Shown here in pieces: positions 4,281-63,890 of a stretch of DNA of 64,000 bases. Position numbers and translations under genes: made by a program. The first letter of the stretch is position 1. Every line of letters starts with the position of its first letter. Source of the stretch: Bacteroidota bacterium (lineage in GTDB: Bacteria > Bacteroidota > Ignavibacteria > OLB7); assembly GCA_048498995.1 (NCBI GenBank), contig JBEHWX010000013.1:19437-83436 (forward strand), written 5' to 3'. Under the pieces are notes generated by a model. That model was not told the origin of the DNA. It worked only from the letters and a program-made list of their open reading frames with translations, and searched no databases.

Positions 4281-6011
4281 ATGACGATCAACGGCATCTT
4301 TCAGATCGTTCTCTTTTTTCTCCTGGTGCTCGCTCTGGCGCGGCCGCTCGGCCTCTACATGAAGCGGCTGTTCGAGGGGGAGCGCACCATCCTGAGCCGC
4401 GCGCTCGGCCCGGTGGAGCGTCTGATCTATCGCCTCTGCGGCGTCGATCCGTCGCATGAGCAGCACTGGACCACGTACACGATCGCCATGCTCCTGTTCA
4501 ACGGGGCGGGTATTCTGCTGCTCTACCTGTTGCAGCGGCTGCAGCACGCGCTCCCGCTCAACCCGCAGGGGCTCGCGCCGGTGGCGCCCGACCTCGCATT
4601 CAACACCGCGGTGAGCTTCGTGACGAACACCAACTGGCAATCCTACGCCGGCGAGTCGACGATGGGATATCTGGTGCAGATGGCCGGTCTGACGGTGCAG
4701 AATTTCGTCTCGTCGGCCACGGGCATCGCGCTCGCGATGGCGCTGATCCGCGCGTTCTCCCGAAGCTCGATGCAGACGCTCGGTAATTTCTGGTCCGATA
4801 TCACCCGCGCCGTGCTGTACCTGCTGCTTCCGATCTCGCTCGTCTTCGCGCTCGTGCTCGTGGCGCAGGGCGTTCCGCAGAATCTCTCCCCCTATGCCAC
4901 GGCGCATACCGTCGAGGGAAGGACGCAGGTGATCGCCCAGGGCCCGGTAGCGTCGCAGGAGGCGATCAAGATGCTCGGGACCAACGGCGGCGGATTCTTC
5001 AACGCGAACTCCGCGCATCCCTACGAAAACCCGACGCCGCTGACGAACCTGCTGCAGATGGTCTCGATTTTCGCGATCGGCGCGGGGCTTACCTACACGT
5101 TCGGCAGCATGGTGAAGGATACGCGCCAGGGGTGGGGAATATTCGCGGCGATGTCGGTCCTCTTTTTCGCCGGCGCGCTAGTGACGTATCACGCGGAATC
5201 CTCCGGCACGCCGTTGCTCGATCGCGCGGGCGTCTCCACCGTCGCCTCTCACGGGCAGGCCGGCGGAAACATGGAGGGAAAAGAGACCCGCTTCGGCATC
5301 GCGACCACGACGCTCTTCGCCACGGTGACCACCGACGCATCGTGCGGCGCGGTCAACGGCATGCACGACAGCTTCACGCCGCTCGGCGGCATGGTGCCGC
5401 TGGTCAACATCGAGCTCGGCGAAGTGATCGTCGGCGGAGTCGGCGCCGGCATGTACGGCATTCTGCTGTTCGCGCTGCTGGCGGTGTTCATCGCCGGACT
5501 GATGGTCGGGCGCACGCCGGAATTCGTCGGCAAGAAAATCGAGGCCAAGGAGATGAAGATGACGGTGCTGGCGCTCGTGCTCGTACTGCCGCTGAGCATT
5601 CTCGGGTTTACGGCGCTTGCCAGCGTGCATCCGGCCGGCATCCGGGGACCGCTCAACGCCGGCCCGCACGGCTTCACGGAAATTCTCTATGCCTACGTCT
5701 CCGGCACCGGCAACAACGGCAGCGCCTTCGCGGGGCTGAGCGCCAACACCCCCTTCTACAACATCACGCTCGCGCTGGCGATGTTGTTCGGACGGTTCCT
5801 CTTCATCGTGCCGGCCATGGCGGTGGCCGGATCGCTCGTCAGGAAGAAGCACATCCCGGCATCGGCCGGCACCTTCCCGACCACCGGGCCGCTCTGGGTC
5901 GGCCTGCTGGTCGGAACCGTCCTGATCGTCGGCGGCCTCACCTTCTTCCCCGCGCTCGCGCTCGGCCCGGTCGTCGAGCATCTGAAGATGCTTGCCGGCG
6001 GGCTGTTCTAA
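4281..6011 (+). CDS. kdpA: K+-transporting ATPase subunit A
   Basis: 576 aa, [36 protein letters not shown]..., polytopic. Canonical KdpA N-terminus and length. Confidence 0.97.
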
Positions 6012-6029
6012 CCAATCGAGAATCCGATC

Positions 6030-8090
<2,061 letters not shown>

Positions 8091-8110
8091 TCATTCATGC
8101 AGGTGCAACG

Positions 8111-8698
8111 ATGCTTTCGCAACTGAAACCGGCGCTCCTGATGGCGCTCGTGATGACCGCGCTGACGGGGCTTCTCTATCCGCTTCTGGTCACCGGCATC
8201 GCGCAGGCGGTCGTTCCGCGTCAGGCCAACGGAAGCCTGATCCGCCGGAACGGCGTGGTGATCGGCTCCGAGCTGATCGGACAGAATTTCTCGGGCCCGG
8301 GTTATTTTCATCCCCGCCCGTCGGCGGCCGGCGCCGGCTACGATGCCGCCGCCTCCGGTGGCTCCAATCTCGGCCCGACCAGCCGGGCACTTGCCGCGCG
8401 CGTCGACAGCCTGGCCGCCGCGCTGCGCGCCGAGAACCCCGGCGTGCCGGTGCCGGTGGACATGGTGACCGCCTCGGCGAGCGGCCTCGATCCGGATATC
8501 TCCCCCGCCGCCGCGGAGTTTCAGCTACCGCGCGTGGCGCGCTCCCGGAATTTTCCGGCCGACCGGCTGCGCGAGCTTGTGCGGCGCGCGACGACTCCGC
8601 GGCAGCTCGGCACCCTCGGCGAGCCCCGCGTCAATGTTCTTCTGTTGAACCTCGCACTCGACTCCCTGGCCGGCGCGCCGGCCGGCGGCGCCCGCTGA
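8111..8698 (+). CDS. kdpC: K+-transporting ATPase subunit C
   Basis: [44 protein letters not shown]... is a KdpC-like N-terminal TM plus periplasmic domain. Start at ATG 8111, within a longer artefactual ORF. Confidence 0.9.
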
Positions 8699-8715
8699 CA
8701 CAGGAGCACCCGATC

Positions 8716-11445
8716 ATGGCCGACAACGACGACAGCAAGAGACGTCCGTCGCCGGAGGCGCTGCTGCGAACCGCGGCCGACGAGGCGCGGGCGCGACGCG
8801 GACGCCTGAAGATCTTCCTCGGCGCGGCGCCCGGCGTGGGAAAAACCTTCACGATGCTCGACGGCGCGCGCTTCCGCGCGATGGGTGGCGAGGAGAACAT
8901 CGTGATCGGCGTGGTCGAGACGCACGGCCGCTCCGAGACGGCCGAGCTGATGCTCGGGCTCGACATCGTGCCGCGCCGGAAGGTCGAGTACCAGGGACAT
9001 CTTCTCGAGGAGATGGATCTCGACGCGATCCTCGCGCGGCGCCCCTCCCTCGTGCTCGTCGACGAGCTCGCGCACACCAACGCCCCCGGCTGCCGGCATC
9101 CGAAGCGCTACATGGACGTCGAGGAGCTGCTCGACGCCGGCGTGGATGTCTACACCACGCTCAACATCCAGCACCTCGAAAGCCTGAACGACGCCGTGGC
9201 GCGGATCACCGGCATCCGCGTGCGGGAGACTGTTCCCGACCGGTTCCTGGAGCGGGCCGACGAGGTGGAGCTGGTGGATATCTCCGTGCAGGATCTTCTC
9301 GATCGACTCCGCGAGGGGAAGGTCTACGTGCCGGATCAGGCGGAGCGCGCCATCCGGAACTACTTCCGTCCCGGCAATCTGAGCGCGCTCAGGCAGCTCG
9401 CGCTCCGGCACATGGCCGAGCGGGTCGACGAGCAGATGCATTCCTACATGCAGGCGCACGCCATCCCCGGCCCCTGGCCGGCCACGGAGCGCCTGCTGGT
9501 GAGCGTGGGGCCGAGCCCGCTTTCCCCCAGGCTGGTGCGCGCCACCCGCCGCCGCGCCGAGCGCCGGCACGCCGAGTGGATCGCGGTCTACGTGGAGACT
9601 CCGGCGCACTACCGACTTTCCGAGACCGATCGGGACCGCGTGGCCGGCACGCTCAGACTGGCCGAGGAGCTCGGCGGCGAAACGCTCACGGTCCCCGGCG
9701 CGAGCGTCAGCGAGGAGCTGCTGCACGTGGCCCGCGCGCGCAACGTCACCGAGATCGTCGTCGGCAAGTCGCACCGCGGTCGGCTGTTCGAGCTGATGCA
9801 CGGCTCGATCGTCGCCGATCTGGTGCGCAACAGCGGAGAGATCGACGTGTTCGTGATCAGCGGCGAGGGGGAGCGCGCGGAGCCGCGGGAGGCGCCGCGC
9901 GGCGTCTCGACCGCGCCCACGATGCTGCGCCGGTACCTGACCGGCGCCGCCACCGTCGCGCTGGCGGCCGCCATCTCCTCGGCCCTGAAGGTGAACCTCG
10001 CGCTGCCGAATCTCTCGCTGATCTTTCTGCTGGCGGTGCTCGCCTCCGGCATCACGCTCGGCCTCGGCCCGTCGATCTTCGTGTCGGTGGCCAGCGTGCT
10101 GGTGTACGATTTCTTCTTCGTGCCGCCGCACTACACGTTCACGATCAGCAGCCCGCAGGACGTGCTGGCGCTGGTGACGTTTCTGGTGGTGGCGGTGCTG
10201 ACGAGCAACCTCACCTCCCGCGTGCGCGATCAGGTGGTGGCCGCGCGCAAGCGTGAGGCGCGCACCGGCGCGCTCCTGTCGCTCACGCGCGTCTTGTCGA
10301 CGTCGGTCGGCATGGAGGATGTCGCCCACGCGGTGGTGCATCAGCTCTCGCAGAACCTGCAGGCGCGGGCGGTGCTGCTGGTGCCGCGCGACGAGATGCT
10401 GATGCAACAGGCGGCCGAGCCGGCCGACGCGAGCCTCACCGAGGCCGAGCGGGGCGCGGCCACATGGTCCTGGCGCAACGGCCGGCCTGCCGGACGCGCC
10501 ACCGATACCCTCTCCGGCGAGCGATGGCTCTACCACCCGCTCCGGACCGCCAACGGCGTGGTCGGCGTGATCGCGCTCCGGTTCGAGCAGGAGGAGGCGT
10601 TCGATCCGGAGCATCGACGGCTGATCGAGGCGCTCTGCGCGCAGGCGGCGCTGGCGCTCGAGCGCGCCGCGCTGACGCGCGATCTCGAACAGGCACGACT
10701 TCTCGAGGAGCAGGAACGGCTGCAGGCGATTCTCCTCTCCTCCATCTCCCACGATCTGCGCACGCCGCTGGCCTCGATCATCGGTGCCGCCTCAAGCCTC
10801 CAGGAGTCGCCGGAAGTGTTCGACGCCGAGGCCCGCCGCGATCTGCTGGCCACGATCCACGAGGAGGCCGAGCGGCTCAACAGGTTCGTCGGCAACCTCC
10901 TGGACACCACGCGGATCGAGTCCGGGGCGCTGAAGCTGGATCGGGACTGGGTGGAGGTGCAGGACGTGATCGGCAGCGCCGCCGGACGCCTTGCCGCGCG
11001 TCTGAAGGAGCATCCCTTCTCCTACCGCCAGGATGACCGGCTCCCGATGGTCCGGCTGGACTTCGTGCTGATGGAACAGGTCTTCGTGAACCTGCTCGAC
11101 AACGCGGCAAAGTATTCGCCGGCCGGCGCGCCGATCCGGGTGCGCGCTCGCCGCCGTGAGGAGATGCTCGAGGTGACCGTGGAGGATGAGGGAGCGGGGG
11201 TTCCGAGGGAGGATCTGGAGAAGATCTTCGACAAGTTCTTCCGCGTGCACCGCGGCGACCGGCAGATGGCCGGCTCCGGGCTCGGGCTGTCGATCTGCCG
11301 CGCGATCGTGGCGGAGCATGGCGGCCGTATCACCGCCTCCAGCCCCGGCCCGCACGGACGGGGAACGGTCTTCTCCCTGCTCCTGCCGATCGAGGAGGAT
11401 CCCGCGCTCGCCCATGCCGATGCGATCAACAGCGAGGAACAATGA
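8716..11445 (+). CDS. kdpD: sensor histidine kinase KdpD
   Basis: 909 aa. N-terminal KdpD domain (GAAPGVGKTFTML, P-loop), Usp-like region, 4 TM, GAF-like region, HisKA (SHDLRTPL), HATPase_c (GLGLSI). Confidence 0.95.
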   Translation: MADNDDSKRRPSPEALLRTAADEARARRGRLKIFLGAAPGVGKTFTMLDGARFRAMGGEENIVIGVVETHGRSETAELMLGLDIVPRRKVEYQGHLLEEMDLDAILARRPSLVLVDELAHTNAPGCRHPKRYMDVEELLDAGVDVYTTLNIQHLESLNDAVARITGIRVRETVPDRFLERADEVELVDISVQDLLDRLREGKVYVPDQAERAIRNYFRPGNLSALRQLALRHMAERVDEQMHSYMQAHAIPGPWPATERLLVSVGPSPLSPRLVRATRRRAERRHAEWIAVYVETPAHYRLSETDRDRVAGTLRLAEELGGETLTVPGASVSEELLHVARARNVTEIVVGKSHRGRLFELMHGSIVADLVRNSGEIDVFVISGEGERAEPREAPRGVSTAPTMLRRYLTGAATVALAAAISSALKVNLALPNLSLIFLLAVLASGITLGLGPSIFVSVASVLVYDFFFVPPHYTFTISSPQDVLALVTFLVVAVLTSNLTSRVRDQVVAARKREARTGALLSLTRVLSTSVGMEDVAHAVVHQLSQNLQARAVLLVPRDEMLMQQAAEPADASLTEAERGAATWSWRNGRPAGRATDTLSGERWLYHPLRTANGVVGVIALRFEQEEAFDPEHRRLIEALCAQAALALERAALTRDLEQARLLEEQERLQAILLSSISHDLRTPLASIIGAASSLQESPEVFDAEARRDLLATIHEEAERLNRFVGNLLDTTRIESGALKLDRDWVEVQDVIGSAAGRLAARLKEHPFSYRQDDRLPMVRLDFVLMEQVFVNLLDNAAKYSPAGAPIRVRARRREEMLEVTVEDEGAGVPREDLEKIFDKFFRVHRGDRQMAGSGLGLSICRAIVAEHGGRITASSPGPHGRGTVFSLLLPIEEDPALAHADAINSEEQ

Positions 11446-19999: not shown

Positions 20000-21402
20000 T
20001 TACGACTGACGGTCGACGACGGCGATCGAGAGGTCGGCCTCGGCCACCAGCGTCCCGTTGACGGTGGCGCGGCCAGACAGAGAGAAGGTGTTGAAGCGCT
20101 TGGACTTGAGGGTCACCTCGAAGACGAGCTGATCGCCCGGGACGACCGGTCTGCGGAACTTGGCGTTGTTGATCCCCATGAAGAACGCCAGCTTCGAGCC
20201 GTCTTCCGGCAGAAAATTGATCAGGAGCATGCCGCCGGTCTGCGCCATCGCCTCGACGATCAGCACGCCCGGCATCACCGGCTGCCCGGGGAAATGTCCG
20301 GCGAAGAAGGGCTCGTTGATCGTGACGTTCTTCAGCCCGATCACCCGTCCGGCCTCGTTGTCCAGCTCGATGATCCGGTCGACCAGCAGGAACGGATAGC
20401 GATGCGCCAGCACCTTCATGATGGCGGTGATATCCATCACGTGGCTGCCGTCGCCGCCGGTCGAGCGGCGCACGAGGCGCTTCTGCTCTGCCAGGCGCTT
20501 GATCTTCCGGGCGAACTCGATGTTGCTGGCGTGTCCGGGGCGCGCGGCCAGAATGTGCGCCTTGATCGGCGCGCCGACCAGCGCGAGATCGCCGATCAGG
20601 TCGAGCAGCTTGTGACGGGCCGGCTCGTTCGGATAGCGCATCGTCCCGTTGTTGAGCACGCCGGTGGAGCCGAGCACCACCGAGCCCTCGATGCCGAGCC
20701 GGCGCGAGAGCTCATCCATCTGCGACTGATCGATCTCCTTGTCGACGATCACGATCGCGTTGTCCAGGTTCCCCCCCTTGATCAGCCCCTCGCGGCGGAG
20801 CATCTCCACCTCGGTCAGGAAGCAGAAGGTGCGGGCCGCGGCGAACTCGGTGGCGAACTCGTTCTGGAGGTTGAACAGGCCGGAGTGCTGGCTGCCGAGC
20901 GCCGGGTTGTGATAGTCGATCATCACCGTCACCCGGAAATCGTCGTACGGGAGGGCCACCATCTCGACCCCCTTGCCGTCGTTCTTGTAGTTGACGATCT
21001 GGTCGATGACGATGTAATTGCGGGGCGCCTTCTGGTCGACGAAGCCGGCGTCCATCAGCACCTGGGTGTAGGGAAGCGCGCTGCCGTCGCCGACGGGGGG
21101 CTCGTTGGCGGTCAGCTCGATGCGGCAGTTGTCCACCTCGAGACCCACCAGCGCGGCCAGCACATGTTCCACGGTATGGACGCTGGCGTCCCCTTTGGTG
21201 AGCGTGGTTCCGCGAGAGATGTCGGTGACGAGGTCGACGTCCGCCGGGATCTCCGGCTGATCGGGAAGGTCGGTTCTGACGAAGCGGAGGCCGTAGTCCT
21301 CGGGGGCCGGCTTGAAGGTGATCGTCGACAGGTTGCCGGTGTGAAGGCCGATCCCCGACAGCGTGGCCGGGGCTGCTATCGTCCGCTGTTGCTGGCGCAT
21401 AT
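20000..21402 (-). CDS. lpxC-fabZ: bifunctional UDP-3-O-acyl-GlcNAc deacetylase / 3-hydroxyacyl-ACP dehydratase (LpxC-FabZ fusion)
   Basis: N-terminal LpxC (GIGLHTGN...HTVEHVLAAL...) fused to C-terminal FabZ hot-dog (LPHRYPFLLVDRI...FFAGHFPGQPVMPGVLIVEAMAQ). Start at MRQQQRTIAAP (21402). Confidence 0.92.
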
Positions 21403-21794
21403 GTGAAGAATGCTGCGAAATGCTCCGGCGCTTCCCCGCCGGACGAGACGGAATGGAGGAACGGGCCAATGGACCCGCCCGGATGGACTTGGCCGCGCAA
21501 GATAACGCTTTGCCCCCCATCTTTCACGGCGGACGCGGTTCACATACGAATTGGAATGCCTTGCCAGGCTCCGGAACGGCGTTTTTTTCAATGGCCGCCC
21601 GCGCCGGCGCGCGCCGAGGTCCGCCGATTAGTGCCACGCCGTACCGTTCGGTTCCCGCTTCATCCACGTTCGGCTCTCACTGAAACGACGCGTGGAGGCG
21701 CCCCGCTCACGGGATGCCTCCACGCTCATATCGCACGTATCGGATGACGACCGATCCGGATGCACGCTCGGCGCGCCGGACGGCGGCGAGGGAA

Positions 21795-48056: not shown

Positions 48057-48099
48057 TCCCACGCGCGGAAACAGCCAAGTTACGTTACGAGGTCCGGCG

Positions 48100-48172
48100 G
48101 GAGAAGCCGTTCGCGCCGAATGGTGGAAACACAGTGTGACGCGCCGGAAGCTCCGCCGAGGCGGCATCCGGC
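48100..48172. repeat. 73-bp conserved repeat, copy 1 (module-boundary element)
   Basis: gggagaagccgttcgcgccgaatggtggaaacacagtgtgacgcgc...gctccgccgaggcggcatccgg, near-identical to 51229-51301. In copy 2 it lies in frame with a transposase-like ORF. Confidence 0.8.
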
Positions 48173-48236
48173 AAGCGCACGGGCCACGTCTCGATTGCGG
48201 CGAGGCCGGTCACCATACCGGAGCTGACAAAGCAGA

Positions 48237-48283
48237 CCGGGATCGGAGAGCTCCTCTCCGATCCCGGTATCGTTTTCATTCGG
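48237..48283. terminator. strong hairpin plus T-tract (likely bidirectional terminator) at 3' end of module 2
   Basis: ccgggatcggagag-ctc-ctctccgatcccgg perfect 14-bp stem (48237-48267), then TATCGTTTTCATTCGG. Lies 15-60 nt beyond the stop of gene 48298..49629. Confidence 0.55.
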
Positions 48284-48297
48284 TCGGATGTGCACTT

Positions 48298-49629
48298 CTA
48301 CCGGACGACCACCTTCACCAGGCCGATCACGCTTCCATCGAGTGAGACTCTAACGATGTAGGTTCCCGCGGACAGATCCCCAAGCTCCGTGAGCGGAACT
48401 GACGTTTCTCCAGGCTCGACCATGATCTCCGGCCCGCGCCACACTTCCCTTCCAAGCAGATCGCTCAACGTTACGTCGAGGCGCCCGCCATGCCCGAGAT
48501 CCACGCGAAGGGAAGCAGCGCCGTCCGGCGAGAGCGGATTGGGCACCAAGCGGAAATTCGCGACGTGCTTCCGAGGCATTGCCACCGATGAAACCGATCC
48601 CGATTGATGGATGTAGATTCTGCCGTCGGAGCCCGTAGCCAGCACACGCGTCGGGCTCAGGTAATGAAGCCCAGATAGGGCAATGATCCTCGCGAAATCG
48701 GCACTCGAGTCGCGGACCCACACGCGCCCTCCGTCACTAGTCCGGAACACAGCGGATGAGTAGTCACCGATGATCCCATTTAGTGTATCGAGAAACGCCA
48801 TCGACAAGATCTGCCAGAACTGGCGATCCAGATCGCTGTCGATCCTCACCTCCCAGGTCCTGGCCCCGTCTTCCGTATAGGCAAGTTGCAGCCTTGAAAG
48901 CTCTCCAGTTGACTCAACAAGAAATCGAGACGCCATCCATCCGTGCAGCGAATCGAGGAAGTACAGTTTTTGGGCTTTGTCGCGCGAGGGCATTCTCCGC
49001 CATGTGTGTCCGGTATCGTCGGTCCGAAAGAGCCGTGTCGAATCTCCGTACGTGACGCAGAGCGCATAAAAATTTGCCGGCGTGGGAGTCGAGATCTCGA
49101 CAACCCCGATTGGAAAGTCCACCGGCGGCAGCTCCGATTCGCGCCATGTCCGTCCACTATCAGTCGTTACCATAATGGTGTGATAGCCAAAGGTCGTAAC
49201 ACCGGTCCGTGCGTCGGCCATTGTCACGAGCTTGATCTTGTCCGTGGTGAAGGTGTCCCGGCTCCACGTATTCCCGCCGTCACGTGTAATCACCACTTGC
49301 CCGCTATCACCACCAACCATGCATACGCTGGGCGTCGGATACGAGATATATCGAAGCGGGATCGGCAACGCGTGCGGCCATGTGGCTGCTCCGGAATCCA
49401 GAAAGACGATCCGCCATGTACGTCCGCCGTCCGTGGATTTACGCACGTCGAACTCCGAAAATCCCCGTGTACCAAGGGCCATGCAGTTCACGGAATCGGC
49501 ACAGTCAAGGCATCGAAACTGATACAACGGAATCGAGTCAATGACCTCCCATCGCCCCGTCTGGGCATAGATTCGTCCGCAGAACAGAAGGAACCCAGCA
49601 ACAATCAGAAGGCGAGCAATACGCTCCAT
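48298..49629 (-). CDS. secreted BNR/Asp-box beta-propeller protein with T9SS C-terminal sorting domain (subtype I, paralog A)
   Basis: Signal peptide MERIARLLIVAGFLLFCGRIYAQ. Repeated S/T-x-D-x-G-x-T-W motifs (STDGGRTW, TRDGGNTW, TDSGRTW, TDDTGHTW, TEDGARTW, TSDGGRVW). C-terminal about 85 aa LVPNPLSPDGAASLRVDL...SAGTYIVRVSLDGSVIGLVKVVVR matches the Por_Secre_tail pattern. Confidence 0.8.
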   Translation of the reverse strand: MERIARLLIVAGFLLFCGRIYAQTGRWEVIDSIPLYQFRCLDCADSVNCMALGTRGFSEFDVRKSTDGGRTWRIVFLDSGAATWPHALPIPLRYISYPTPSVCMVGGDSGQVVITRDGGNTWSRDTFTTDKIKLVTMADARTGVTTFGYHTIMVTTDSGRTWRESELPPVDFPIGVVEISTPTPANFYALCVTYGDSTRLFRTDDTGHTWRRMPSRDKAQKLYFLDSLHGWMASRFLVESTGELSRLQLAYTEDGARTWEVRIDSDLDRQFWQILSMAFLDTLNGIIGDYSSAVFRTSDGGRVWVRDSSADFARIIALSGLHYLSPTRVLATGSDGRIYIHQSGSVSSVAMPRKHVANFRLVPNPLSPDGAASLRVDLGHGGRLDVTLSDLLGREVWRGPEIMVEPGETSVPLTELGDLSAGTYIVRVSLDGSVIGLVKVVVR

Positions 49630-49722: not shown

Positions 49723-50682
49723 TTAACGAGACACAAATGTGCCCGTTGTGAAATTGCATCCACCGAACGAAACTCTGTAGAAGTAGACGCCAGGGACCAA
49801 CCGTCCGCGGTCAATGACAAACCTATACACTCCATCGCCATCCAACACGGGCCGAAGTTCATCAACCTTTCTACCCGACACATCATTCAACTCCAGCAGG
49901 CCCTTGGCCGCAACCTCGGGTTTGCAGAGTATCGTCATTTCCAGGCCCAGATTGAAGATCTGCACATCATTGATGCGGTCCGCCTTGATAGCTCCCGTCA
50001 CGGGCTTACCTGATGTATCACTAAAGACAATGTTATCACACATCGCGAAACAGGATGATGTCGTAAAATCTCCAATGATAGGATTGATGGGAAATCCCGG
50101 GTTCCCGGATTCGGCATCCACCTCACAAGAAGTTGCGGTTGAGCGTTGATATTCGGTAACGATGCTAACATTACCATTCAGATCCTTGCAAACGCGATAG
50201 CGTGCAACGCAACACCCCGAGCCCTGGCAGGGGCGGATCGTCGGGATGGATCCGACATTCGTCTGCTTCCAGCAACCAGCAACACTGACACGGTAGTAAT
50301 TGATACATGAACCTGCGACAGGATTGGAGAACGGAAGAATCCCGGCAGTGAGGAGATATTGTGCCACCTCACGGAGCCAATCCCCCGGGAAGCACCCCGC
50401 GCATGTCCCAGACACATACTCGATCTTATATATCTGAATGTCGACATAGTTATCCGGCGGGCAGGCATTTCGAAAGACGTACCAGGCTCTAACCTGGCAA
50501 CTGCTCCCGCATGTAGTCAATGTGAAGGCCCAATTGCTGACTCCGACGGTGTTCCAGGAATGCTCTGGACAATCAGGGTAACAGAGCAGGTCTTCTTCCG
50601 AAGGCTGTGCATGGGCCGAGGTGGCAGTGGCAAAGAAGGTCGCGAAGAGCGCCATCATTGCCAGAAGTGTGACTCTCGACAT
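49723..50682 (-). CDS. secreted cysteine-rich protein of unrecognised family with T9SS-type C-terminal domain (paralog B)
   Basis: Signal peptide MSRVTLLAMMALFATFFATATSAHAQ. About 18 Cys in the mature region (LLCYPDCP, TTCGSSCQ, GTCAGC, GCCVARYRVCK, SSCFAMC). C-terminal VYRFVIDRGRLVPGVYFYRVSFGG... resembles the T9SS CTD. Paralogous to 55708..56664. Confidence 0.7.
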   Translation of the reverse strand: MSRVTLLAMMALFATFFATATSAHAQPSEEDLLCYPDCPEHSWNTVGVSNWAFTLTTCGSSCQVRAWYVFRNACPPDNYVDIQIYKIEYVSGTCAGCFPGDWLREVAQYLLTAGILPFSNPVAGSCINYYRVSVAGCWKQTNVGSIPTIRPCQGSGCCVARYRVCKDLNGNVSIVTEYQRSTATSCEVDAESGNPGFPINPIIGDFTTSSCFAMCDNIVFSDTSGKPVTGAIKADRINDVQIFNLGLEMTILCKPEVAAKGLLELNDVSGRKVDELRPVLDGDGVYRFVIDRGRLVPGVYFYRVSFGGCNFTTGTFVSR

Positions 50683-50925
50683 GATTCGTACCTCGTCGAT
50701 AGTAAGTAGTGGATCGACCGCGAACCCTCACTCCTCCCCCATGCGCAATTCCCGTTCTCTCCCGGACTCCGGCCGCTGGTGCGTGATGGCCGACCGTGTC
50801 GAAGTGCGTCGAATGCTGGAAGCCCTGCTTCCGGAATATGCCGGTGAATCGGTGTGTCTTACCTGACGTCGCCAATGGGCGGAACGTGGGTACAAAGGTA
50901 CAGCTCGATACCATTGCTGTCAAGT
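50683..50925 (-). promoter_or_regulatory. conserved about 200-nt leader plus candidate promoter upstream of Cys-rich gene B (copy 1)
   Basis: Near-identical to 56665-56905. On minus strand: TTGACA (rc 50918-50923), N17, TACCTTTG (rc 50893-50900). The conserved leader has hairpins GGAAGC-AGG-GCTTCC and CCGG-CATATT-CCGG. Confidence 0.5.
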
Positions 50926-51228
50926 GGGCCTCAAACGAAAAGAGCCGGGCGCATTGCCTCACAAATAATGTAACCAGAGGTCGTTGGCGGCCAGGGTCGT
51001 TGCCTCATAATAGATGTAACCGATCTAGCACTGAGGCAACGCTATGTCAGAAGCATCCAGACGTGAGTACCTACGGGCCATCTACAGGCGCTATCACACG
51101 GCATCCGTCGAGCAGAAAGGACGCATCCTCGATGAGTTCACCGCTGCCTGCGGCTACAACCGCAAGTACGCCATCCGGCTGCTCAATGCGCCACTGGATC
51201 CTCCTGCCAGGCCACCGAAGCGTCCGGT

Positions 51229-51301
51229 GGGAGAAGCCGTTCGCGCCGAATGGTGGAAACACAGTGTGACGCGCGCGACGCTCCGCCGAGGCGGCATCCG
51301 G
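51229..51301. repeat. 73-bp conserved repeat, copy 2 (module-boundary element)
   Basis: Near-identical to 48100-48172 (differences only around gcgc-c/g-g-a/c-a/g-gctcc). Confidence 0.8.
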
Positions 51302-51379
51302 TGGGATCACCGGCCTGGCGGCCGCGATAGTGACGCCCGATCGCCATCGATCAATATGCCGGTACGAACAAAGCAGGCC

Positions 51380-51420
51380 GGGATCGGAGAGCGGCTCTCC
51401 GATCCCAGTTTCGTTTTCAT
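51380..51420. terminator. strong hairpin plus T-tract (likely bidirectional terminator) at 3' end of module 1
   Basis: gggatcggagagc-g-gctctccgatccc (51380-51406) then AGTTTCGTTTTCAT. Lies 20-60 nt beyond the stop of gene 51439..52773. Homologous to the 48237 hairpin. Confidence 0.55.
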
Positions 51421-51438
51421 TCGGTCGGATGTGCCCTT

Positions 51439-52773
51439 CTAGCGCGCAAGCACCTTCACCAAGCCGATCACGCTTCCATCGAGTGAGACTCTGACAATGT
51501 AGGTTCCCGCGGACAGTCTCCCACGCGGCGCCAGCGGGATCGTCCTCTCGCCAGGCCCAATCACCTCTCCCTGCTCGGTCGCCACCTCCCTTCCGAGCAT
51601 GTCCGTGACCACCACTGTGAGGCGTCCGCCACGCTCCGTCGAGAGCCTGATCATCGCCATGCCGTCGCGGTCTACGGGATTGGGTGACAAACTTAGGCCG
51701 GTACGGCTCGTACCGATCTCCGCAACACCGGACTCCGGTTCGGACTCCGAGACGTAGATCTTGCCGTCGGCCGTCGCGGAGATCAGGCGTGTCGGCGTCA
51801 GATACTCGACACCCACGAAAATTTCAAGATTAGAGGCGAACACGTTCCAATCCCGATACCAGGTGCGCCCCCCGTCGCTGGTCAACCATACAGAGAGCGA
51901 ATAATCACCAATAATACCGTTGAGTGAATCACGGAATGCCATCGACATAATCCTCCAGAACTTGCCATTCAAGTCACTGTCGATCAATGTCTCCCAGGTC
52001 TTCCCTCCGTCACGCGTGTAGGCAAGGTTTAGCCGAGAAAGCTCTCCGTTTGGATCGATAATGAATCGGGACGCCATCCATCCCCGAAGCGAATCGAGAA
52101 AATAAATATTGAAGGCTTGGTCGCGCGATGGCAGTCGTTGCCAGGTTCTGCCCGTGTCGTCGGTTCGAAACAAAAGTGTTGAATCTCCACGAGTTGCACA
52201 TAGGCCCAGGAATGTCCCTGAAGCCGGTGTGGACACATCAGCCACTCCATGGGGATCGGATAAGTCAGGCCACAGGGATTGCCTCCATGTCGCACCTCCA
52301 TCGGTCGTCACCAATACCGAATCTGCGCCGATCACGATCATCCCGACGTTCGCATCCGACATTGACACAGCATTCACTTTGAGATTGCCGAACGTGTCGC
52401 GACTCCATGTACTACCTCCGTCATGTGTAACGAGCAACTGTCCTTTGTCGCCTCCGACCATGCATACATCGGCAGTCGGATGTGAGATATGACGCAGCGG
52501 TGCGGGCAGCGGGTGAGGCCATCCGCTCCCACCAGAGTCAATGTAGACGGTACGCCAAGTCCGGCCGCCATCAGTGGATCTGCGCACGTCAAACTCACCG
52601 AACCCGAATGTTCCAACCGCCATGCAATGCAGAGAATCAGCGCAATCGAGACACATGTACGTGAAACGGTAGACTGAGTCCTGCAACCGCCAATCCGAAA
52701 TTTGAGCAACGCTTCGGTTCCCAATGGTGGCAAGAGCCAGAATCGCGATGGCAAGAATCACGCGCTTCTTCAT
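51439..52773 (-). CDS. secreted BNR/Asp-box beta-propeller protein with T9SS CTD (subtype II, paralog C)
   Basis: Start at MKKRVILAIAILALATIGNRSVAQ (ATG 52773). BNR motifs (STDGGRTW, THDGGSTW, TDGGATW, TDDTGRTW, TRDGGKTW, TSDGGRTW). CTD ...SAGTYIVRVSLDGSVIGLVKVLAR. Confidence 0.8.
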   Translation of the reverse strand: MKKRVILAIAILALATIGNRSVAQISDWRLQDSVYRFTYMCLDCADSLHCMAVGTFGFGEFDVRRSTDGGRTWRTVYIDSGGSGWPHPLPAPLRHISHPTADVCMVGGDKGQLLVTHDGGSTWSRDTFGNLKVNAVSMSDANVGMIVIGADSVLVTTDGGATWRQSLWPDLSDPHGVADVSTPASGTFLGLCATRGDSTLLFRTDDTGRTWQRLPSRDQAFNIYFLDSLRGWMASRFIIDPNGELSRLNLAYTRDGGKTWETLIDSDLNGKFWRIMSMAFRDSLNGIIGDYSLSVWLTSDGGRTWYRDWNVFASNLEIFVGVEYLTPTRLISATADGKIYVSESEPESGVAEIGTSRTGLSLSPNPVDRDGMAMIRLSTERGGRLTVVVTDMLGREVATEQGEVIGPGERTIPLAPRGRLSAGTYIVRVSLDGSVIGLVKVLAR

Positions 52774-52811
52774 GGCGATGTCGGTATTAGGCTGTTGGAA
52801 CAAGATCCGTT

Positions 52812-54143
52812 TTATGGGACAATCGCCTTCACCATGCCGATCACTCTTCCGTCCACCGAGATCCGAATGACGTAGGATCCGGGGGGCATGTCCCGAAACC
52901 CCGTAAGTGGAACTAGGGTTTCTCCAGGCCCGGCAATGACCTCCGCCCCGCGCCACACATCCCTTCCAAGAAGATCGACCATTGTAAGGTCGAGACGACC
53001 GCCGTGTTCGAGCTTCATCCGCAGCGAGGGGGTGCCATCCGACGAGACCGGATTGGGCGCTAGGCTGACATCGGCAACGTCATTGCGAACCATGATCACT
53101 GATGAAACCGGACCCGATTCATCGATAAAAACCTTTCCGTCGGAAGACACAGCCAGCAGACGCGTCGGGTTGAGATACTGAAGTCCCGAAGGAGCAAAGA
53201 TCTGAGCACTCAGAGCGCTTGAATCACGAAGCCACGTATACCCTCCATCACTCGTCCCGAAGACAGCGGAAGAGTTATCTCCAATCACGCCATGCAAGGT
53301 ATCGAGAAACGCGATCGACATGATCCGCCAGAACTGACGATTCAGATCACTGTCGATCCTCACTTCCCACGTTCTGGCGCCATCATTCGTGTAGGCAAGT
53401 TGCAGTCTCGAAAGCTCTCCATTCGGATCGATACTATTTCTGGAGGCCATCCAACCGTGCAGCGAATCGAGGAAATAAATATCCCGGGCCTTATCTCGCG
53501 ATGGCATTTTTCGCCACGTATGCCCGGCGTCGTCAGATCGAAAGAGCGGCGTCGAATCGCCATACGTGGCGCAGAGTGCGTAGAAGGTCGACGGCGTCGG
53601 AGTCACCATCTCGCTAACACCAATTGGAAAGTCCACCGGGGGCAGCTCTGATTCTCGCCAGGAACGACCGGTATCGGTCGTGACCAATATCGTATGATAT
53701 CCAAAGGACGTAACGCCGGTCCGCGCGTCCGCCATTGCCACAAGCTTAATCTTATCTGTCGTGAGCGTATCACGGCTCCAGGTGCCTCCTCCGTCTCGTG
53801 TTATCAGCACCTGGCCGCTATCTCCACCAACAATGCACACATTCGGATCAGGATACGAAACGTGGCGGAGAAGGATAGGCAGCGAATGGGGCCACGTGGC
53901 TGCTCCTGAATCCAGAAACACAGTTCGCCAGGTGCGTCCTCCATCGGCGGACTTCCGGATAAGCGATGCCGCGAACCCCTTTGTTCCGACGACCATGCAG
54001 TTCATGGAATCCGCGCAGTCAAGCGACAGATATTGGACATTCGGTATCGAGTCGACGACCTCCCATCGCCCCGTCTGGGCGTGAAGCTGCACACCGAGTA
54101 CGATCCCGAGCACGATCAGAAAGTGACGGGCCATGCAATGCAT
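52812..54143 (-). CDS. secreted BNR/Asp-box beta-propeller protein with T9SS CTD (subtype I, paralog D)
   Basis: Signal MHCMARHFLIVLGIVLGVQLHAQ (start 54143 or 54134). Roughly 80% identical by eye to paralog A over the N-terminal half. CTD ...SYVIRISVDGRVIGMVKAIVP. Confidence 0.8.
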   Translation of the reverse strand: MHCMARHFLIVLGIVLGVQLHAQTGRWEVVDSIPNVQYLSLDCADSMNCMVVGTKGFAASLIRKSADGGRTWRTVFLDSGAATWPHSLPILLRHVSYPDPNVCIVGGDSGQVLITRDGGGTWSRDTLTTDKIKLVAMADARTGVTSFGYHTILVTTDTGRSWRESELPPVDFPIGVSEMVTPTPSTFYALCATYGDSTPLFRSDDAGHTWRKMPSRDKARDIYFLDSLHGWMASRNSIDPNGELSRLQLAYTNDGARTWEVRIDSDLNRQFWRIMSIAFLDTLHGVIGDNSSAVFGTSDGGYTWLRDSSALSAQIFAPSGLQYLNPTRLLAVSSDGKVFIDESGPVSSVIMVRNDVADVSLAPNPVSSDGTPSLRMKLEHGGRLDLTMVDLLGRDVWRGAEVIAGPGETLVPLTGFRDMPPGSYVIRISVDGRVIGMVKAIVP

Positions 54144-54268
54144 GCGAGATTCTCCAGCAAGTGAACCAAATGCTGCCTGGTAAGGGCCGAGGAGTCTCAC
54201 CCTTCCGCGGGATTCCATCCCGGCATGGCGGACTATCGGTCAGCCAGCACCTGAGGTGCAGACTCTCC

Positions 54269-55606
54269 TTATCGAACGAAGGCCTTCACCACGCCGATCA
54301 TATCTCCATCAAGCGCGATTCTGACGATGTAGGTTCCCGCGGACAGTCTCCCACGCGGCGCCAGCGGGAGCGTCCTCTCGCCAGGCCCAATCACCTCTTC
54401 CTGCTCGGTCGCCACCTCCCTTCCGAGCAGGTCCGTAACGACCACGTCAAGGCGCCCACCCCGCTCCGTCGAGAGCCTGATCATCGCCATGCCGTCGCGG
54501 TCGACGGGATTGGGTGACAAGCTTAGGCCGGTACGGCTCGTACCGATCTCCGTAACACCGGACTCCGGCTGAGATTCGAAGGCGTAGATCTTGCCGTCGG
54601 CCGTCGCGGAGATCAGGCGCGTCGGGGTCAGGTACTCGACACCCGAGAATGTCGTAAGCTTCAGAGCATACACACTCCAGTCCCGATACCAGGTACGTCC
54701 ACCGTCACTGGTCAACCATACGGCAAACGAGTAGTCACCGATGATGCCATTGAGCGTATCCTTGAACGCCATCGAATGGATCTTCCAGAACTTGCCGTTC
54801 AAATCGCTGTCGATCAACTGTTCCCACTGCTCCCCACCATCACGTGTATAGGCGAGATCCAGCCGCGAAAGCTCCCCATTCGGATCGACACGAATTCGAG
54901 ATGCCATCCACCCATGGAGCGAATCGATGAAGTAGATATTCTGCGCTCTATAGCGGGAAGGCATTTGCCGCCAGGTTCGTCCCGTATCATCCGTACGAAA
55001 CAGATAGCTAGAATCGCTCATTACAACACAAAGCACAAGAAAGGTTCCGGGAGCAGGTGCTGTGATATCGACAACTCCATACGCGCGAGGCATCGATGGC
55101 ATCTCCGATTCCCCCCAGGTTCTTCCCCCGTCAGTAGTCACAAATATCGAATCGGCACCAATCGCAAACATGCCCACATTTGCATTAGACATTACAACTG
55201 TTTTCACATTGAGATCGCCGAATATCTGACGGCTCCATGTTGCCCCCCCGTCTCGTGTTACAAGCACTTGCCCTTTGTCCCCGCCGACCGCACATATATC
55301 TGCAGAAGGATATGAGATATGTCGCAATGGAGCAGGTAGTGGGTGCGGCCAGCCAATGCCCCCAGAATCCAGATAAACCGTGCGCCAGGTTCGGCCTCCA
55401 TCGGTGGACTTGCGTATATCGAACTCGCCGAACCCGAACGTACTGATGGCCATGCAGTGCAGCGAATCCGCGCAGTCGAGGCTCATGTAAGACATCTGAT
55501 AAACGGAGTCCTGCAGTTCCCAGTCACTGATCTGTGCAAGCAGGCGGCTTCCCGCGAGAAACAGCATCAATGACAACACCGAAATCAAAGTTTTTCTAAA
55601 CATCAT
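54269..55606 (-). CDS. secreted BNR/Asp-box beta-propeller protein with T9SS CTD (subtype II, paralog E)
   Basis: Signal MMFRKTLISVLSLMLFLAGSRLLAQ. Roughly 75% identical by eye to paralog C. The 3' about 120 bp are virtually identical to C at DNA level. Confidence 0.8.
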   Translation of the reverse strand: MMFRKTLISVLSLMLFLAGSRLLAQISDWELQDSVYQMSYMSLDCADSLHCMAISTFGFGEFDIRKSTDGGRTWRTVYLDSGGIGWPHPLPAPLRHISYPSADICAVGGDKGQVLVTRDGGATWSRQIFGDLNVKTVVMSNANVGMFAIGADSIFVTTDGGRTWGESEMPSMPRAYGVVDITAPAPGTFLVLCVVMSDSSYLFRTDDTGRTWRQMPSRYRAQNIYFIDSLHGWMASRIRVDPNGELSRLDLAYTRDGGEQWEQLIDSDLNGKFWKIHSMAFKDTLNGIIGDYSFAVWLTSDGGRTWYRDWSVYALKLTTFSGVEYLTPTRLISATADGKIYAFESQPESGVTEIGTSRTGLSLSPNPVDRDGMAMIRLSTERGGRLDVVVTDLLGREVATEQEEVIGPGERTLPLAPRGRLSAGTYIVRIALDGDMIGVVKAFVR

Positions 55607-55707
55607 TCAACCTCAGAGTTTCCCCTGTGAGATATCAACAGACAAACATAAACGCCACAAGGTTATTAGGTATCCGTTGCTGCCGCAACGGATACCTAAT
55701 AATACAC

Positions 55708-56664
55708 TCACCGACCGAAGAACTCTCCGGTCGTGAAATTTTGACCGTTGAATGAGATTCGGTAATAGTAGATGCCACTCCCGAATCTGATCCGGTCGAC
55801 CAAGAACCTGCATGCATTATCGCCCACAATTACGGGGCGAAGTTCGGCGACTTTCTTACCCTGAGCATCGAAAATTTCTGCAACCCCTTCCAACAGGGAT
55901 TGGGGGCGACACAAGATCTGCATTTCAGCTCCCTGATGAAATACCTGAACATCATCAGTGATATTATATTGACCGCCCCAATACTTCTTGCCGAATGAAT
56001 CATTAATTGTGATCGCATCGCACTGCGGAGTGCAGGATGATGTCGTTTGGTCTCCAATCACGGGGTTATACGGAAAATTTAGATCGAGCGACTCCGGATC
56101 ATTATCGCATGGGGGCTGAGTTGGCGATTGATATTCAGTCGTAATCGTTATTCGATCGTCGGTACCCTTGCACACCTTATATCGTGCAACGCAACATCCC
56201 GCGGACTGGCAAGCTCGTATTGACGGTACAGAGCCGACTTTGACCTCTTTCCAACAGCTTGCGATACTAACCCTAAAGTAGGTAACACAGTTATCAGGGT
56301 CAGGGTTTGGAAACAGAGAGATGTTATCGACCAGCAAATGTTCGGCTGCTCCTTGGATCCAATCCGAAATCGAACAGCTCGTACATGTTCCAGACACGTA
56401 TTCGATCTTATAAATCTGAACATCCTGATAGTTACTGGGCGCACACGCCGTCCGATACACGTACCAGGCCCGAAGTTGACAGGAGCTACCACATGTGGTC
56501 AGTGTAAACATGTGATTGGATACGCCTACCGTACTCCATTGATCGGCTGGGCAGTCCGGGTAACAGAGCAAGTCTCCGTACGAAGGTTGGGCCATGGCGG
56601 TTACCGCGAGCCCGAGAAACGCGGCGATGAGTGAGAGCATGCCTCTCAAAATGATTCTCGACAT
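55708..56664 (-). CDS. secreted cysteine-rich protein of unrecognised family with T9SS-type CTD (paralog F)
   Basis: Signal MSRIILRGMLSLIAAFLGLAVTAMAQ. Conserved Cys framework shared with paralog B (LLCYPDCP...FTLTTCGSSCQ.RAWYV.R.AC.P.NY.D.QIYKIEYVSGTC..C...CCVARY.VCK). CTD ...GIYYYRISFNGQNFTTGEFFGR. Confidence 0.7.
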   Translation of the reverse strand: MSRIILRGMLSLIAAFLGLAVTAMAQPSYGDLLCYPDCPADQWSTVGVSNHMFTLTTCGSSCQLRAWYVYRTACAPSNYQDVQIYKIEYVSGTCTSCSISDWIQGAAEHLLVDNISLFPNPDPDNCVTYFRVSIASCWKEVKVGSVPSIRACQSAGCCVARYKVCKGTDDRITITTEYQSPTQPPCDNDPESLDLNFPYNPVIGDQTTSSCTPQCDAITINDSFGKKYWGGQYNITDDVQVFHQGAEMQILCRPQSLLEGVAEIFDAQGKKVAELRPVIVGDNACRFLVDRIRFGSGIYYYRISFNGQNFTTGEFFGR

Positions 56665-56905
56665 GATTCGTACCTCGTCGATAGTATGTAGTGGATCGAC
56701 CGCGAATCCTCACTCCCCTTCGTGGGCAAATCCTCCCTCCCGGACTCCGGCCGCTGATGCGTGATGGTCGGTCGTATCGATGTCCGTCGAGTGCTGGAAG
56801 CCCTGCTTCCGGAATATGCCGGTGAATCGGTGTGTCGTACCTGACGTCGCCATCTGGCTGAACGCGGGTACAAAGGTACAACTTGACACCATCGCGACCA
56901 AGCGG
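56665..56905 (-). promoter_or_regulatory. conserved about 200-nt leader plus candidate promoter upstream of Cys-rich gene F (copy 2)
   Basis: Near-identical to 50683-50925. On minus strand: TTGGTC (rc 56896-56901), N17, TACCTTTG (rc 56871-56878). Confidence 0.5.
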
Positions 56906-56973
56906 CGCCAAACGCAACGAGCCGGTGAGGCACTTCCCTCACCGGCTCGTACAATCGCTCTTCTGATTCTCCC

Positions 56974-62795: not shown

Positions 62796-63890
62796 TCAGT
62801 GCGCGGCCGCGTGCTCGGTGGCGCCGACGCCGTGCGGCTCGTGGCCGTGGTCGTCGTGCGAGGCCATGCCGATGCCGGTGAACACCGCGGTCAGCATCGT
62901 GAAGATGTAGGCCTGCAGGAACACCACCAGAAGCTCGAGGATGTTGATGAAGAGCGAGAAGCCGATCGTCACCGGGATGAAGACGCCGGAGACGAAGACC
63001 AGGCCGATGAGCGACAGCAGGATCACGTGGCCGGCGGTCATGTTGGCGAAGAGTCGGACGCAGAGCGCGAACGGCTTGGTGAACAAGCCGAGCACCTCGA
63101 CCGGAACCATGATCGGCCAGAGCCAGACCGGCACGCCGCCGGTCAGATGCTTGAGCCAGCCGCCGAGGCCGTTCTTGAAGATCGCCGCCAGCTGGATCAC
63201 GAAGAAGGCCACGATCGCAAGGCCGGCCGTCACGTTCAGGCTGCCGGTGGCGGTGTGCCCGCCCGGCACCAGGCCGACCACGTTCATCGTGAAGATGAAG
63301 AAGAAGAAGGTGAGGAAGATCGGCATCATCTTCTTGCCTTCCTCGCCGGTGTTCGGCAGCACGATCTCGTCGCGCACGTAGACCACCAGCGCCTCCATGG
63401 CGTTGAAGAATCCGCGCGACGGACGCACGCCGGACTTCTTGTACTTCCGCCCCATCGGGAACAGGATCACCAGCAGCAGAAGCATCGCGATCCACTGGAA
63501 GAAGACCAGGCTGGTCACCGACATATCGAACGACGGAGCCTGCTCGGTGCCGGCGCGGACGATATGGTGATGCTTGTACTCGAACAGCCCCCCCTCCTGC
63601 ATCTTCTCGACACTCGGGTAGACATGCAGGCCGTTGTCGATCAGGATCACCGGAAGGTCGAACAGATGATGCGGACCGAAAGAGATCTCGCGATGATCGC
63701 CGAGCTCCGACAGAAGCGTGGTGAACGGCGATTCCTTGGCCGCGCCATGCTCCGCGCTCTCGGCGTGTCCGGCCTCGGCGTGTCCGGCTTCGGTCTTGGT
63801 CGCTCCGCCGCCATGCTCCGCTCCGCCGGCATGCTCCGTGGAAGGATGCTCGGCCTGAGCAATCAGTTGATCGTGCCTGGGATCGTTCAT
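62796..63890 (-). CDS. atpB: F0F1 ATP synthase subunit a (long N-terminal extension, His-rich termini)
   Basis: C-terminal core with the conserved R-containing helix (LCVRLFANMTAGHVIL) and 5-6 TM. About 110-aa N-terminal extension. His-rich N- and C-termini. Confidence 0.85.
   Translation of the reverse strand: MNDPRHDQLIAQAEHPSTEHAGGAEHGGGATKTEAGHAEAGHAESAEHGAAKESPFTTLLSELGDHREISFGPHHLFDLPVILIDNGLHVYPSVEKMQEGGLFEYKHHHIVRAGTEQAPSFDMSVTSLVFFQWIAMLLLLVILFPMGRKYKKSGVRPSRGFFNAMEALVVYVRDEIVLPNTGEEGKKMMPIFLTFFFFIFTMNVVGLVPGGHTATGSLNVTAGLAIVAFFVIQLAAIFKNGLGGWLKHLTGGVPVWLWPIMVPVEVLGLFTKPFALCVRLFANMTAGHVILLSLIGLVFVSGVFIPVTIGFSLFINILELLVVFLQAYIFTMLTAVFTGIGMASHDDHGHEPHGVGATEHAAAH

Follow-up and report, generated by a model that had tools for sequence, protein, structure and literature searches.

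A candidate new cysteine-rich domain, plausibly exported by type IX secretion and encoded directly upstream of beta-propeller proteins, in a Bacteroidota genome

INTRODUCTION

What are two paralogous proteins with 18 cysteines each, and what might they do for the bacterium that encodes them? The question is raised by a 64,000-nt stretch of DNA (here called the window) from a Bacteroidota bacterium assigned to OLB7 of the Ignavibacteria (GenBank assembly GCA_048498995.1, contig JBEHWX010000013.1, positions 19,437 to 83,436 of the forward strand). It carries CysB (49723..50682; 319 aa, identical to database protein P0001) and its 318-aa paralog CysF (55708..56664), both on the minus strand, as are the window genes, upstream elements, and hairpins placed by coordinates below unless noted. 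An earlier reading, made from the letters and a list of open reading frames (ORFs) with translations and called the sequence-only reading here, had described the two as an unrecognized family with an invariant Cys framework that maps to no known fold, and had proposed that they fold oxidatively in the periplasm before export by the type IX secretion system (T9SS).

The family proves to be real and sizeable. Its fold is a candidate new one, and gene order gives a strong clue to its partner; from these we infer a function. On balance, and with modest confidence, we favor the view that CysB and CysF are exported, disulfide-stapled domains that would act outside the cell, together with a beta-propeller protein, as rigid binding modules and not as enzymes. 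The sequence-only reading was right about the paralogs themselves but had missed which strand they lie on, how large the family is, that a beta-propeller gene is its obligatory neighbor, and that copy number changes between strains.

RESULTS

Two intact paralogs share a cysteine framework

Both ORFs are intact and full length. CysB and CysF are 55% identical over their whole length (BLASTP, E 4e-132) and share one architecture, in which a 16-Cys domain stands between a signal peptide and a T9SS-like tail at the C terminus. By inspection, each begins with an N-terminal Sec signal peptide. In CysB it spans residues 1-25 (50608..50682), with a basic n-region, a hydrophobic core, and an AxA site (MSRVTLLAMMALFATFFATATSAHA followed by Q), and cleavage is predicted between SAHA and QPSEED; in CysF it likewise spans residues 1-25 (56590..56664; MSRIILRGMLSLIAAFLGLAVTAMA followed by Q), with predicted cleavage between TAMA and QPSYGD.

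Sixteen of the 18 Cys in each protein stand at identical positions (34, 38, 58, 62, 74, 94, 97, 126, 137, 152, 157, 158, 165, 186, 211, and 215), and the other two, which are not conserved, lie in the C-terminal tail. This conservation exceeds chance: by an arithmetic estimate, the probability of keeping 16 of 16 Cys at 55% identity is about 0.55^16 = 7e-5. The Cys-rich domain runs from C34 to C215 in both proteins, at 50038..50583 in CysB, where family conservation and the structure model described below define it, and at 56020..56565 in CysF, where it was placed by Cys positions and domain alignment. All the motifs that the sequence-only reading had singled out (CYPDCP, TTCGSSCQ, GTCxxC, GCCVARY(R/K)VCK, and SSCxxxC) are found in CysB and in CysF, and the framework that it called invariant is borne out, identically placed in the pair and near-invariant at 14 positions across the family.

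The family is large, and its cysteines vary in pairs

A word-indexed search with CysB over 5.8 billion clusters returned CysB and CysF only, and a pattern scan of 185,579 species genomes with the two-sequence alignment returned nothing, leaving even the source genome unrecovered. The orphan status suggested by the word-indexed search was overturned by an exhaustive HMMER search, in which a profile of both mature regions, run against 1.84 billion representatives, found 193 cluster representatives at E<=1e-3, 27 of them at E<=1e-10. The closest outside homolog is P0003 (E 5e-63). A subfamily alignment was used for the genome-collection scan that gave some of the outside loci discussed below. The sequence-only reading had made its own case depend on homologs outside this genome; they exist, and the framework conserved in many of them excludes a frame or low-complexity artifact.

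In a 140-domain alignment of distant homologs, 14 Cys columns are 91-99% Cys. Among 112 full-length members, each of these columns holds Cys in at least 90%, and a curated domain alignment of 38 sequences shows no exception at any of them. Cys makes up a median 8.9% of the domain. Apart from Cys, the 38-sequence alignment conserves R131 without exception and D37, R71, D81, and W138 at 90% or more, and it shows no nucleophile or metal-binding pattern. The Cys domain is usually the sole passenger domain of its protein.

C58 (TTCGSSC) and C97 (GTCxxC) form an accessory pair outside the 14-Cys core: 41 sequences have both, 83 have neither, and 16 have one without the other (Fisher p=7e-21). Among variants, P0073 has lost both C62 and C94 while keeping C58 and C97, and P0080 has lost both C126 and C165, a pattern that speaks for disulfides linking positions 58/62 with 94/97 and position 126 with 165. 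Disulfide bonding has indirect support from three sides, namely an even number of Cys, the co-occurrence of C58 and C97, and the paired losses in variants. Within about 170 residues, the domain is predicted to form seven core disulfides, with an eighth in the window proteins, a density that to our knowledge is unusual for a bacterial protein.

A second cysteine-rich module, N-terminal and without a Pfam match, occurs in one to three copies in the multidomain members P0010, P0011, P0022, P0023, P0024, P0027, and P0041; its pattern is 'CCPCP...W...C..GC.V...P....CY.(H/Y)Y'. P0041 has DUF7948 in addition.

The Cys domain matches no described family or solved fold

Pfam-A (2025 copy) gave zero families for CysB and CysF at E<=1, and across 112 family members it gave none on the Cys domain, the recurrent families being confined to the tails. 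The recurrent NCBIfam (June 2026) matches were T9SS sorting-domain and T9SS-dependent protein models, which we attribute to the tail, and none of them models the Cys domain. PHROGs and PADLOC profiles gave no match for the family and viral contigs held no relatives, on which grounds a phage or defense-system reading was rejected. Among PDB sequence profiles there was no significant match (best E 1.3 and 0.13).

An AlphaFold2 run on the two-sequence alignment reached a predicted local distance difference test (pLDDT) score of 58 and was discarded together with its fold search. The run on the 38-sequence alignment, which we used, gave a pLDDT of 89.3 (five models, 85.8-89.3) and a predicted template modeling (pTM) score of 0.85. 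Its topology is three beta strands, one 14-residue helix, five strands, and a short tail that holds the last three Cys. A structural search with this confident model found no neighbor in the PDB; the nearest likeness, a sheet-plus-helix alpha+beta arrangement, extends over 59-67 aligned residues only. Epidermal growth factor (EGF) domains, lectins, protease inhibitors, and the sortilin 10CC module gave neither a significant sequence-profile match nor a significant structural match to the model. Thus, the earlier statement that the framework maps to no known fold withstood Pfam-A, NCBIfam, PHROGs, PADLOC, PDB profiles, and PDB structures, and the profile and PDB structure searches produced no confident match to a characterized domain. 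We regard the Cys domain as an undescribed family in Pfam, NCBIfam, and the PDB and as a candidate new fold.

A propeller gene follows the Cys gene

The clue to a partner is gene order. CysB is followed after 93 nt by BNR1 (48298..49629; 443 aa) and CysF after 101 nt by BNR4 (54269..55606; 445 aa), behind which come two further paralogs, BNR3 (52812..54143; 69% identity to BNR1, start chosen at MHCMARHF...) and BNR2 (51439..52773; 55% identity to BNR1, start chosen at MKKRVIL...). All four products, of about 445 aa, are Ycf48-like Asp-box propellers with T9SS tails, recognized both by Asp-box motifs and by propeller hidden Markov models. The Pfam model PSII_BNR scored 33.7 and 35.7 bits in the BNR neighbors against a cut-off of 27, which BNR1-4 exceed; the Sortilin-Vps10 model scored 35.1 and 47.4 bits against a cut-off of 33; and solved Ycf48 chains in the PDB match the propellers with an E of 2.5e-6. 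BNR1-4 are like the Ycf48/HCF136-like and BNR/Asp-box seven-bladed propellers, but they carry T9SS tails and sit beside a Cys gene in a foreign cassette, and nothing ties them to photosystem II.

The terminator scan predicted no terminator in the two Cys-to-BNR gaps. Because these gaps are short and free of a predicted terminator, the Cys and BNR genes are likely cotranscribed. The same scan placed intrinsic-terminator-like hairpins after BNR1 (48236..48268; 15-bp stem) and after BNR2 (51378..51408; 14-bp stem). In the direction of transcription, an MFS gene comes first, followed by an upstream element of about 265 nt, CysF, BNR4, BNR3, BNR2, a hairpin, and a 94-nt repeat. Past a transposase fragment that reads the other way, the upstream element recurs and leads into CysB, BNR1, a hairpin, the second 94-nt repeat, and housekeeping genes.

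Beyond the window, the arrangement recurs. In 14 of 14 informative modules, meaning distinct ones with enough downstream sequence, a propeller-type gene lies directly downstream on the same strand, 12 being BNR/Asp-box and 2 FG-GAP; this is a raw count. The 12 BNR modules are those of CysB, CysF, P0155, P0152, P0153, P0158, P0105, L012, L013, L016, L015 (the same module as L021/L022, counted once), and the second module of L021. Downstream of P0155 is a gene for a BNR protein of 731 aa that has a sorting domain, and P0152, P0153, P0158, and P0105 are each followed by a protein of 152-166 aa and then by a BNR propeller of 721-739 aa. The second tandem module of L021, in which a 316-aa, 20-Cys member with its own tail precedes a BNR protein, mirrors the window. 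The count includes BNR modules of genomes labeled Cryomorphaceae, Owenweeksia, and Kapaibacteriales and of one further lineage, which is represented by a metagenome and by a mis-binned contig of 3.4 kb. P0005 and P0007, which branch more deeply, have an FG-GAP/ASPIC propeller downstream in place of a BNR one. The flanking genes vary between loci and are often transposases or integrases.

Nine distinct loci with tail-less members were inspected, and in each the Cys gene stands directly before a propeller-type gene. Six of the partners match the sorting-domain model, and the tail of the other three (the partners of P0152, P0158, and L016) was judged from the sequence alone. Since members that lack a sorting domain precede a propeller-type protein that has one, a physical association of the two proteins is suggested. 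In general, the pattern suggests that the Cys protein and the downstream propeller work together outside the cell.

At many outside loci, the Cys gene and the large propeller gene are separated by a gene for a small protein of 144-191 aa, which has no counterpart in the window (L004 8670-9155, L007 4944-5402, L009 2667-3167, L012 6699-7265, L013 6651-7226, L016 6712-7146, and L021 5690-6184). These proteins combine a T9SS-like tail with one to three Asp-box motifs. Asp-box-like motifs were seen by inspection in three of the four shown in full (L004, L007, and L009) and by motif count in those of L012-L016 and L021; the L007 and L012 products match the sorting-domain model weakly or below threshold. 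Two of the small proteins, searched against Pfam, gave no family beyond the BNR repeat and the tail. From their sequences, they look like an undescribed mini-family. In two Flavobacteriales loci (L012 7432-11195 and L013 7377-9693), the small Asp-box protein is followed by a LytTR-type response regulator, and behind this L012 encodes a sensor kinase of about 1000 aa with Reg_prop propeller repeats and a Y_Y_Y domain, L013 having a gene in the equivalent position.

At the P0007 locus (L031 4623-9436), a gene for an extracytoplasmic function (ECF)-type sigma factor and a 195-aa ORF precede the Cys gene, and the FG-GAP/ASPIC propeller and then an OmpH-like gene follow it. This may be a regulated surface operon.

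The C-terminal tails resemble T9SS sorting domains

The last 85 or so residues of CysB and CysF align with the C-terminal tails of BNR1-4, with the common motifs D-x-x-G-[RK]-x-V and G-x-Y-x-x-R. In CysB the putative type-A-like sorting domain covers residues ~236-319 (49726..49977), and in CysF it lies at 55711..55962. The NCBIfam model TIGR04183 matched the CysB tail with an E of 0.014 (15.3 bits) and the CysF tail with an E of 0.0016 (18.3 bits), against a curated cut-off of 23. Of six homologous tails, five matched PF18962 at E<=1 (best 3e-8). Pfam finds Por_Secre_tail in 47 of 112 members and CHU_C in 4 of 112. Among 123 complete members, 58 have a tail of 61-140 aa and 55 end no more than 15 aa past the last Cys. 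A profile-profile comparison of tails was circular, with CysB and CysF in both alignments, and was not used.

The island holds six tail-bearing genes. Elsewhere in the window, at 20000-21520 and beside LpxD and BamA, there is a fused LpxC-FabZ gene (FabA-like), a fusion typical of Bacteroidota/Chlorobiota-group bacteria, and this fits a T9SS-bearing lineage. Together, the six tails and the fusion give indirect support for T9SS machinery in the host. CysB and CysF resemble T9SS type-A cargo in having a signal peptide, a passenger domain, and a beta-rich C-terminal tail of about 80 aa; they differ in that the passenger matches no described cargo domain and the tails score below the cut-off, and about half of the Cys family has no tail. 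By function class, membership in T9SS cargo is supported by the signal peptide and by tail homology. As to the earlier proposal of oxidative folding before T9SS export, the disulfides are indirectly supported, and secretion by the T9SS appears plausible, not proven.

The module has moved and changes quickly

An element of about 265 nt precedes both Cys genes, copy B (50683..50948) ending at the CysB ATG and copy F (56665..56930) abutting the MFS gene. The copies are 87-95% identical, compared to 55% protein-level identity for the coding regions, and the identity ends about 15 nt inside the coding sequence. A 45-nt core of the element has no third copy in the window. Within the element, cTTG-N20-TAccTTTG looks like a Bacteroidota promoter, for which the published consensus is TAnnTTTG. 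A structured-RNA reading was unsupported: the consensus fold of both copies showed no compensatory changes and no covariation, and Rfam gave no match over 47.5-57.5 kb. The element is not conserved 5' of the outside homolog P0003.

GC content at third codon positions is 0.53-0.65 in the six island genes, far below the 0.83-0.89 of MutS2, YqeY, MFS, atpG, and atpA; therefore, the module was acquired from a lower-GC donor. The genomes of the outside relatives have 28-50% GC.

On contigs from other samples, P0159 is 99% identical to CysB, at the same chromosomal site and with the gene intact. The gene order in this ~99%-identical strain is atpG, MFS, Cys, BNR, Peripla_BP_2, YqeY, and MutS2, with one module only. 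Compared to this site (locus L026), the window has an extra 5.98 kb (50949-56930) that comprises CysF, BNR4, BNR3, BNR2, and the transposase fragment. The upstream element of the other strain is a mosaic, its 5' half like copy F and its 3' half like copy B, and so the difference between one and two modules arose by recombination between element copies. Either the window strain gained the extra segment or the other strain lost it; both events would yield the pattern.

The truncated transposase fragment (51044..51175, plus strand) lies at the junction of the two modules. By tblastn, its first 44 aa are 50-55% identical to the N termini of gene products annotated 'transposase family protein' (E 4e-7), and Pfam gave no match for the fragment. 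Just past the BNR1 and BNR2 terminator hairpins lie the two copies of a 94-nt direct repeat (48092-48185 and 51222-51315; 89% identical), which marks the 3' edge of the duplicated unit.

Between the two strains, the ratio of synonymous to nonsynonymous codon differences is 4:5 in Cys and 7:4 in BNR1, compared to 15:1 in MFS and 21:1 in MutS2 (Fisher p=0.0006). The excess of amino acid changes in Cys and BNR1 points to relaxed or diversifying selection, which is usual for exposed surface proteins. Taken together, the Cys-propeller module appears to behave as a mobile, fast-evolving surface cassette.

DISCUSSION

We imagine the following path for CysB and CysF. Sec would carry the preprotein over the inner membrane, and in the periplasm it would fold and be oxidized into an alpha+beta domain of about 170 residues with its seven or, in the window proteins, eight disulfides. 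The C-terminal sorting domain would then pass it to the T9SS, and outside the cell it would act jointly with the propeller protein or proteins encoded directly downstream. It would probably serve a surface complex as a binding subunit, rigid and resistant to proteases, and not act as an enzyme. Catalysis is argued against because the conserved residues other than Cys are only R, D, and W, the domain is usually a lone passenger, and the partner is always a propeller, of two unrelated families.

Several points weigh against this view. The support is computational throughout, and we infer T9SS export, the physical partnership with the propeller, and the binding role alike. The sorting tails of CysB and CysF fall under the curated NCBIfam cut-off, a Pfam search of the CysB tail reported no match, and no T9SS machinery gene was found among the genes scanned in the 64-kb window. 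Synteny speaks for co-inheritance and coexpression, not physical contact, and sorting-domain propellers are abundant in these phyla, so some adjacency is expected by chance. The variant patterns by themselves support disulfides for three of the eight pairs only, the substitution comparison involves only 20 and 38 codons, and the statement that there is no known fold covers the PDB only.

The alternative that survives best, though we consider it unlikely, would have the Cys domain act by itself as a secreted effector (an antibacterial toxin, a lytic enzyme, or an inhibitor, for example), with the propellers as co-regulated cargo, accessory, or immunity factors. Against it, no catalytic-type motif is conserved beside the invariant R, D, and W, and nothing in toxin, defense, or phage libraries matches. 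The downstream gene is, moreover, always a propeller drawn from two unrelated families, which a shared mode of interaction explains more easily.

One can envision a bolder form of the partnership, for which we see only a slim chance, in which the new fold would form, in trans, a two-component extracellular receptor with the beta-propeller, tail-less members riding the propeller through the T9SS. Such a receptor would be a bacterial functional analog of the propeller-plus-cysteine-rich-module design of eukaryotic sortilin/Vps10 or integrins. As in the sortilin/Vps10 ectodomain (propeller plus 10CC), a partner that matches the Sortilin-Vps10 model goes with a compact module rich in disulfides; the likeness is no more than an analogy, and the Cys domain differs in that no sequence or structural similarity to sortilin/Vps10 was found.

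About as improbable is that the Cys protein is a periplasmic helper for the propeller cargo, be it a folding chaperone, a plug, or a secretion adaptor. The 55 members that end just past the last Cys, and the position of tail-less genes before a propeller-type gene at all nine loci inspected, are what a helper would predict. However, 58 of the 123 complete members, both window proteins included, have a tail of sorting-domain size, and since 47 of 112 also match the Pfam model, the Cys domain itself is likely exported in about half of the family. A scaffold with seven or eight disulfides is also typical of extracellular and not of transient periplasmic proteins. Binding with the propeller outside the cell remains the reading we favor.

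We give very little credence to a periplasmic or extracellular metalloprotein, in which the conserved Cys would bind a metal or a redox cofactor. The CxxxC, CC, and CxPDC motifs can bind metals, but the accessory Cys come and go as a pair, core Cys disappear two at a time in variants, no conserved His or Met stands next to the Cys, and there is no heme CxxCH motif; furthermore, Sec would export the protein into an oxidizing compartment, and AlphaFold folds the domain confidently without a ligand. That the two ORFs are artifacts or decaying pseudogenes in a junk island, as its atypical GC content, transposase fragment, and repeats might suggest, is refuted by two intact, full-length ORFs with signal peptide and tail, by 193 homologous clusters with the invariant Cys framework, and by the intact gene in the related strain.

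The family matters in several ways. A confident model without a PDB neighbor makes the Cys domain a target for structure determination, and the family could enter the databases as a new domain family. It could serve as a test case for how Bacteroidota-type cells oxidize tightly cross-linked cargo and then move it through the T9SS. A full-text literature search found nothing relevant, and our impression is that the function of Ycf48-like/BNR proteins with sorting domains is uncharacterized; the strict adjacency gives a first handle on them. The change in copy number and the excess of amino acid changes point to a role at the interface of the cell with phages, predators, particles, or hosts.

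Other genes of the window

Two further loci in the window are of minor note. Upstream of the genes for ATP synthase b, delta, alpha, and gamma lies a 364-aa ORF (62796-63890), presumably that of the ATP synthase subunit a. About 55 aa with many His, Ala, Glu, and Gly extend its N terminus, and its C terminus is His-rich. An ordinary Kdp potassium-uptake locus occupies 4281-11445 on the plus strand, with KdpA, a P-type ATPase (KdpB-like), and a KdpD sensor kinase.

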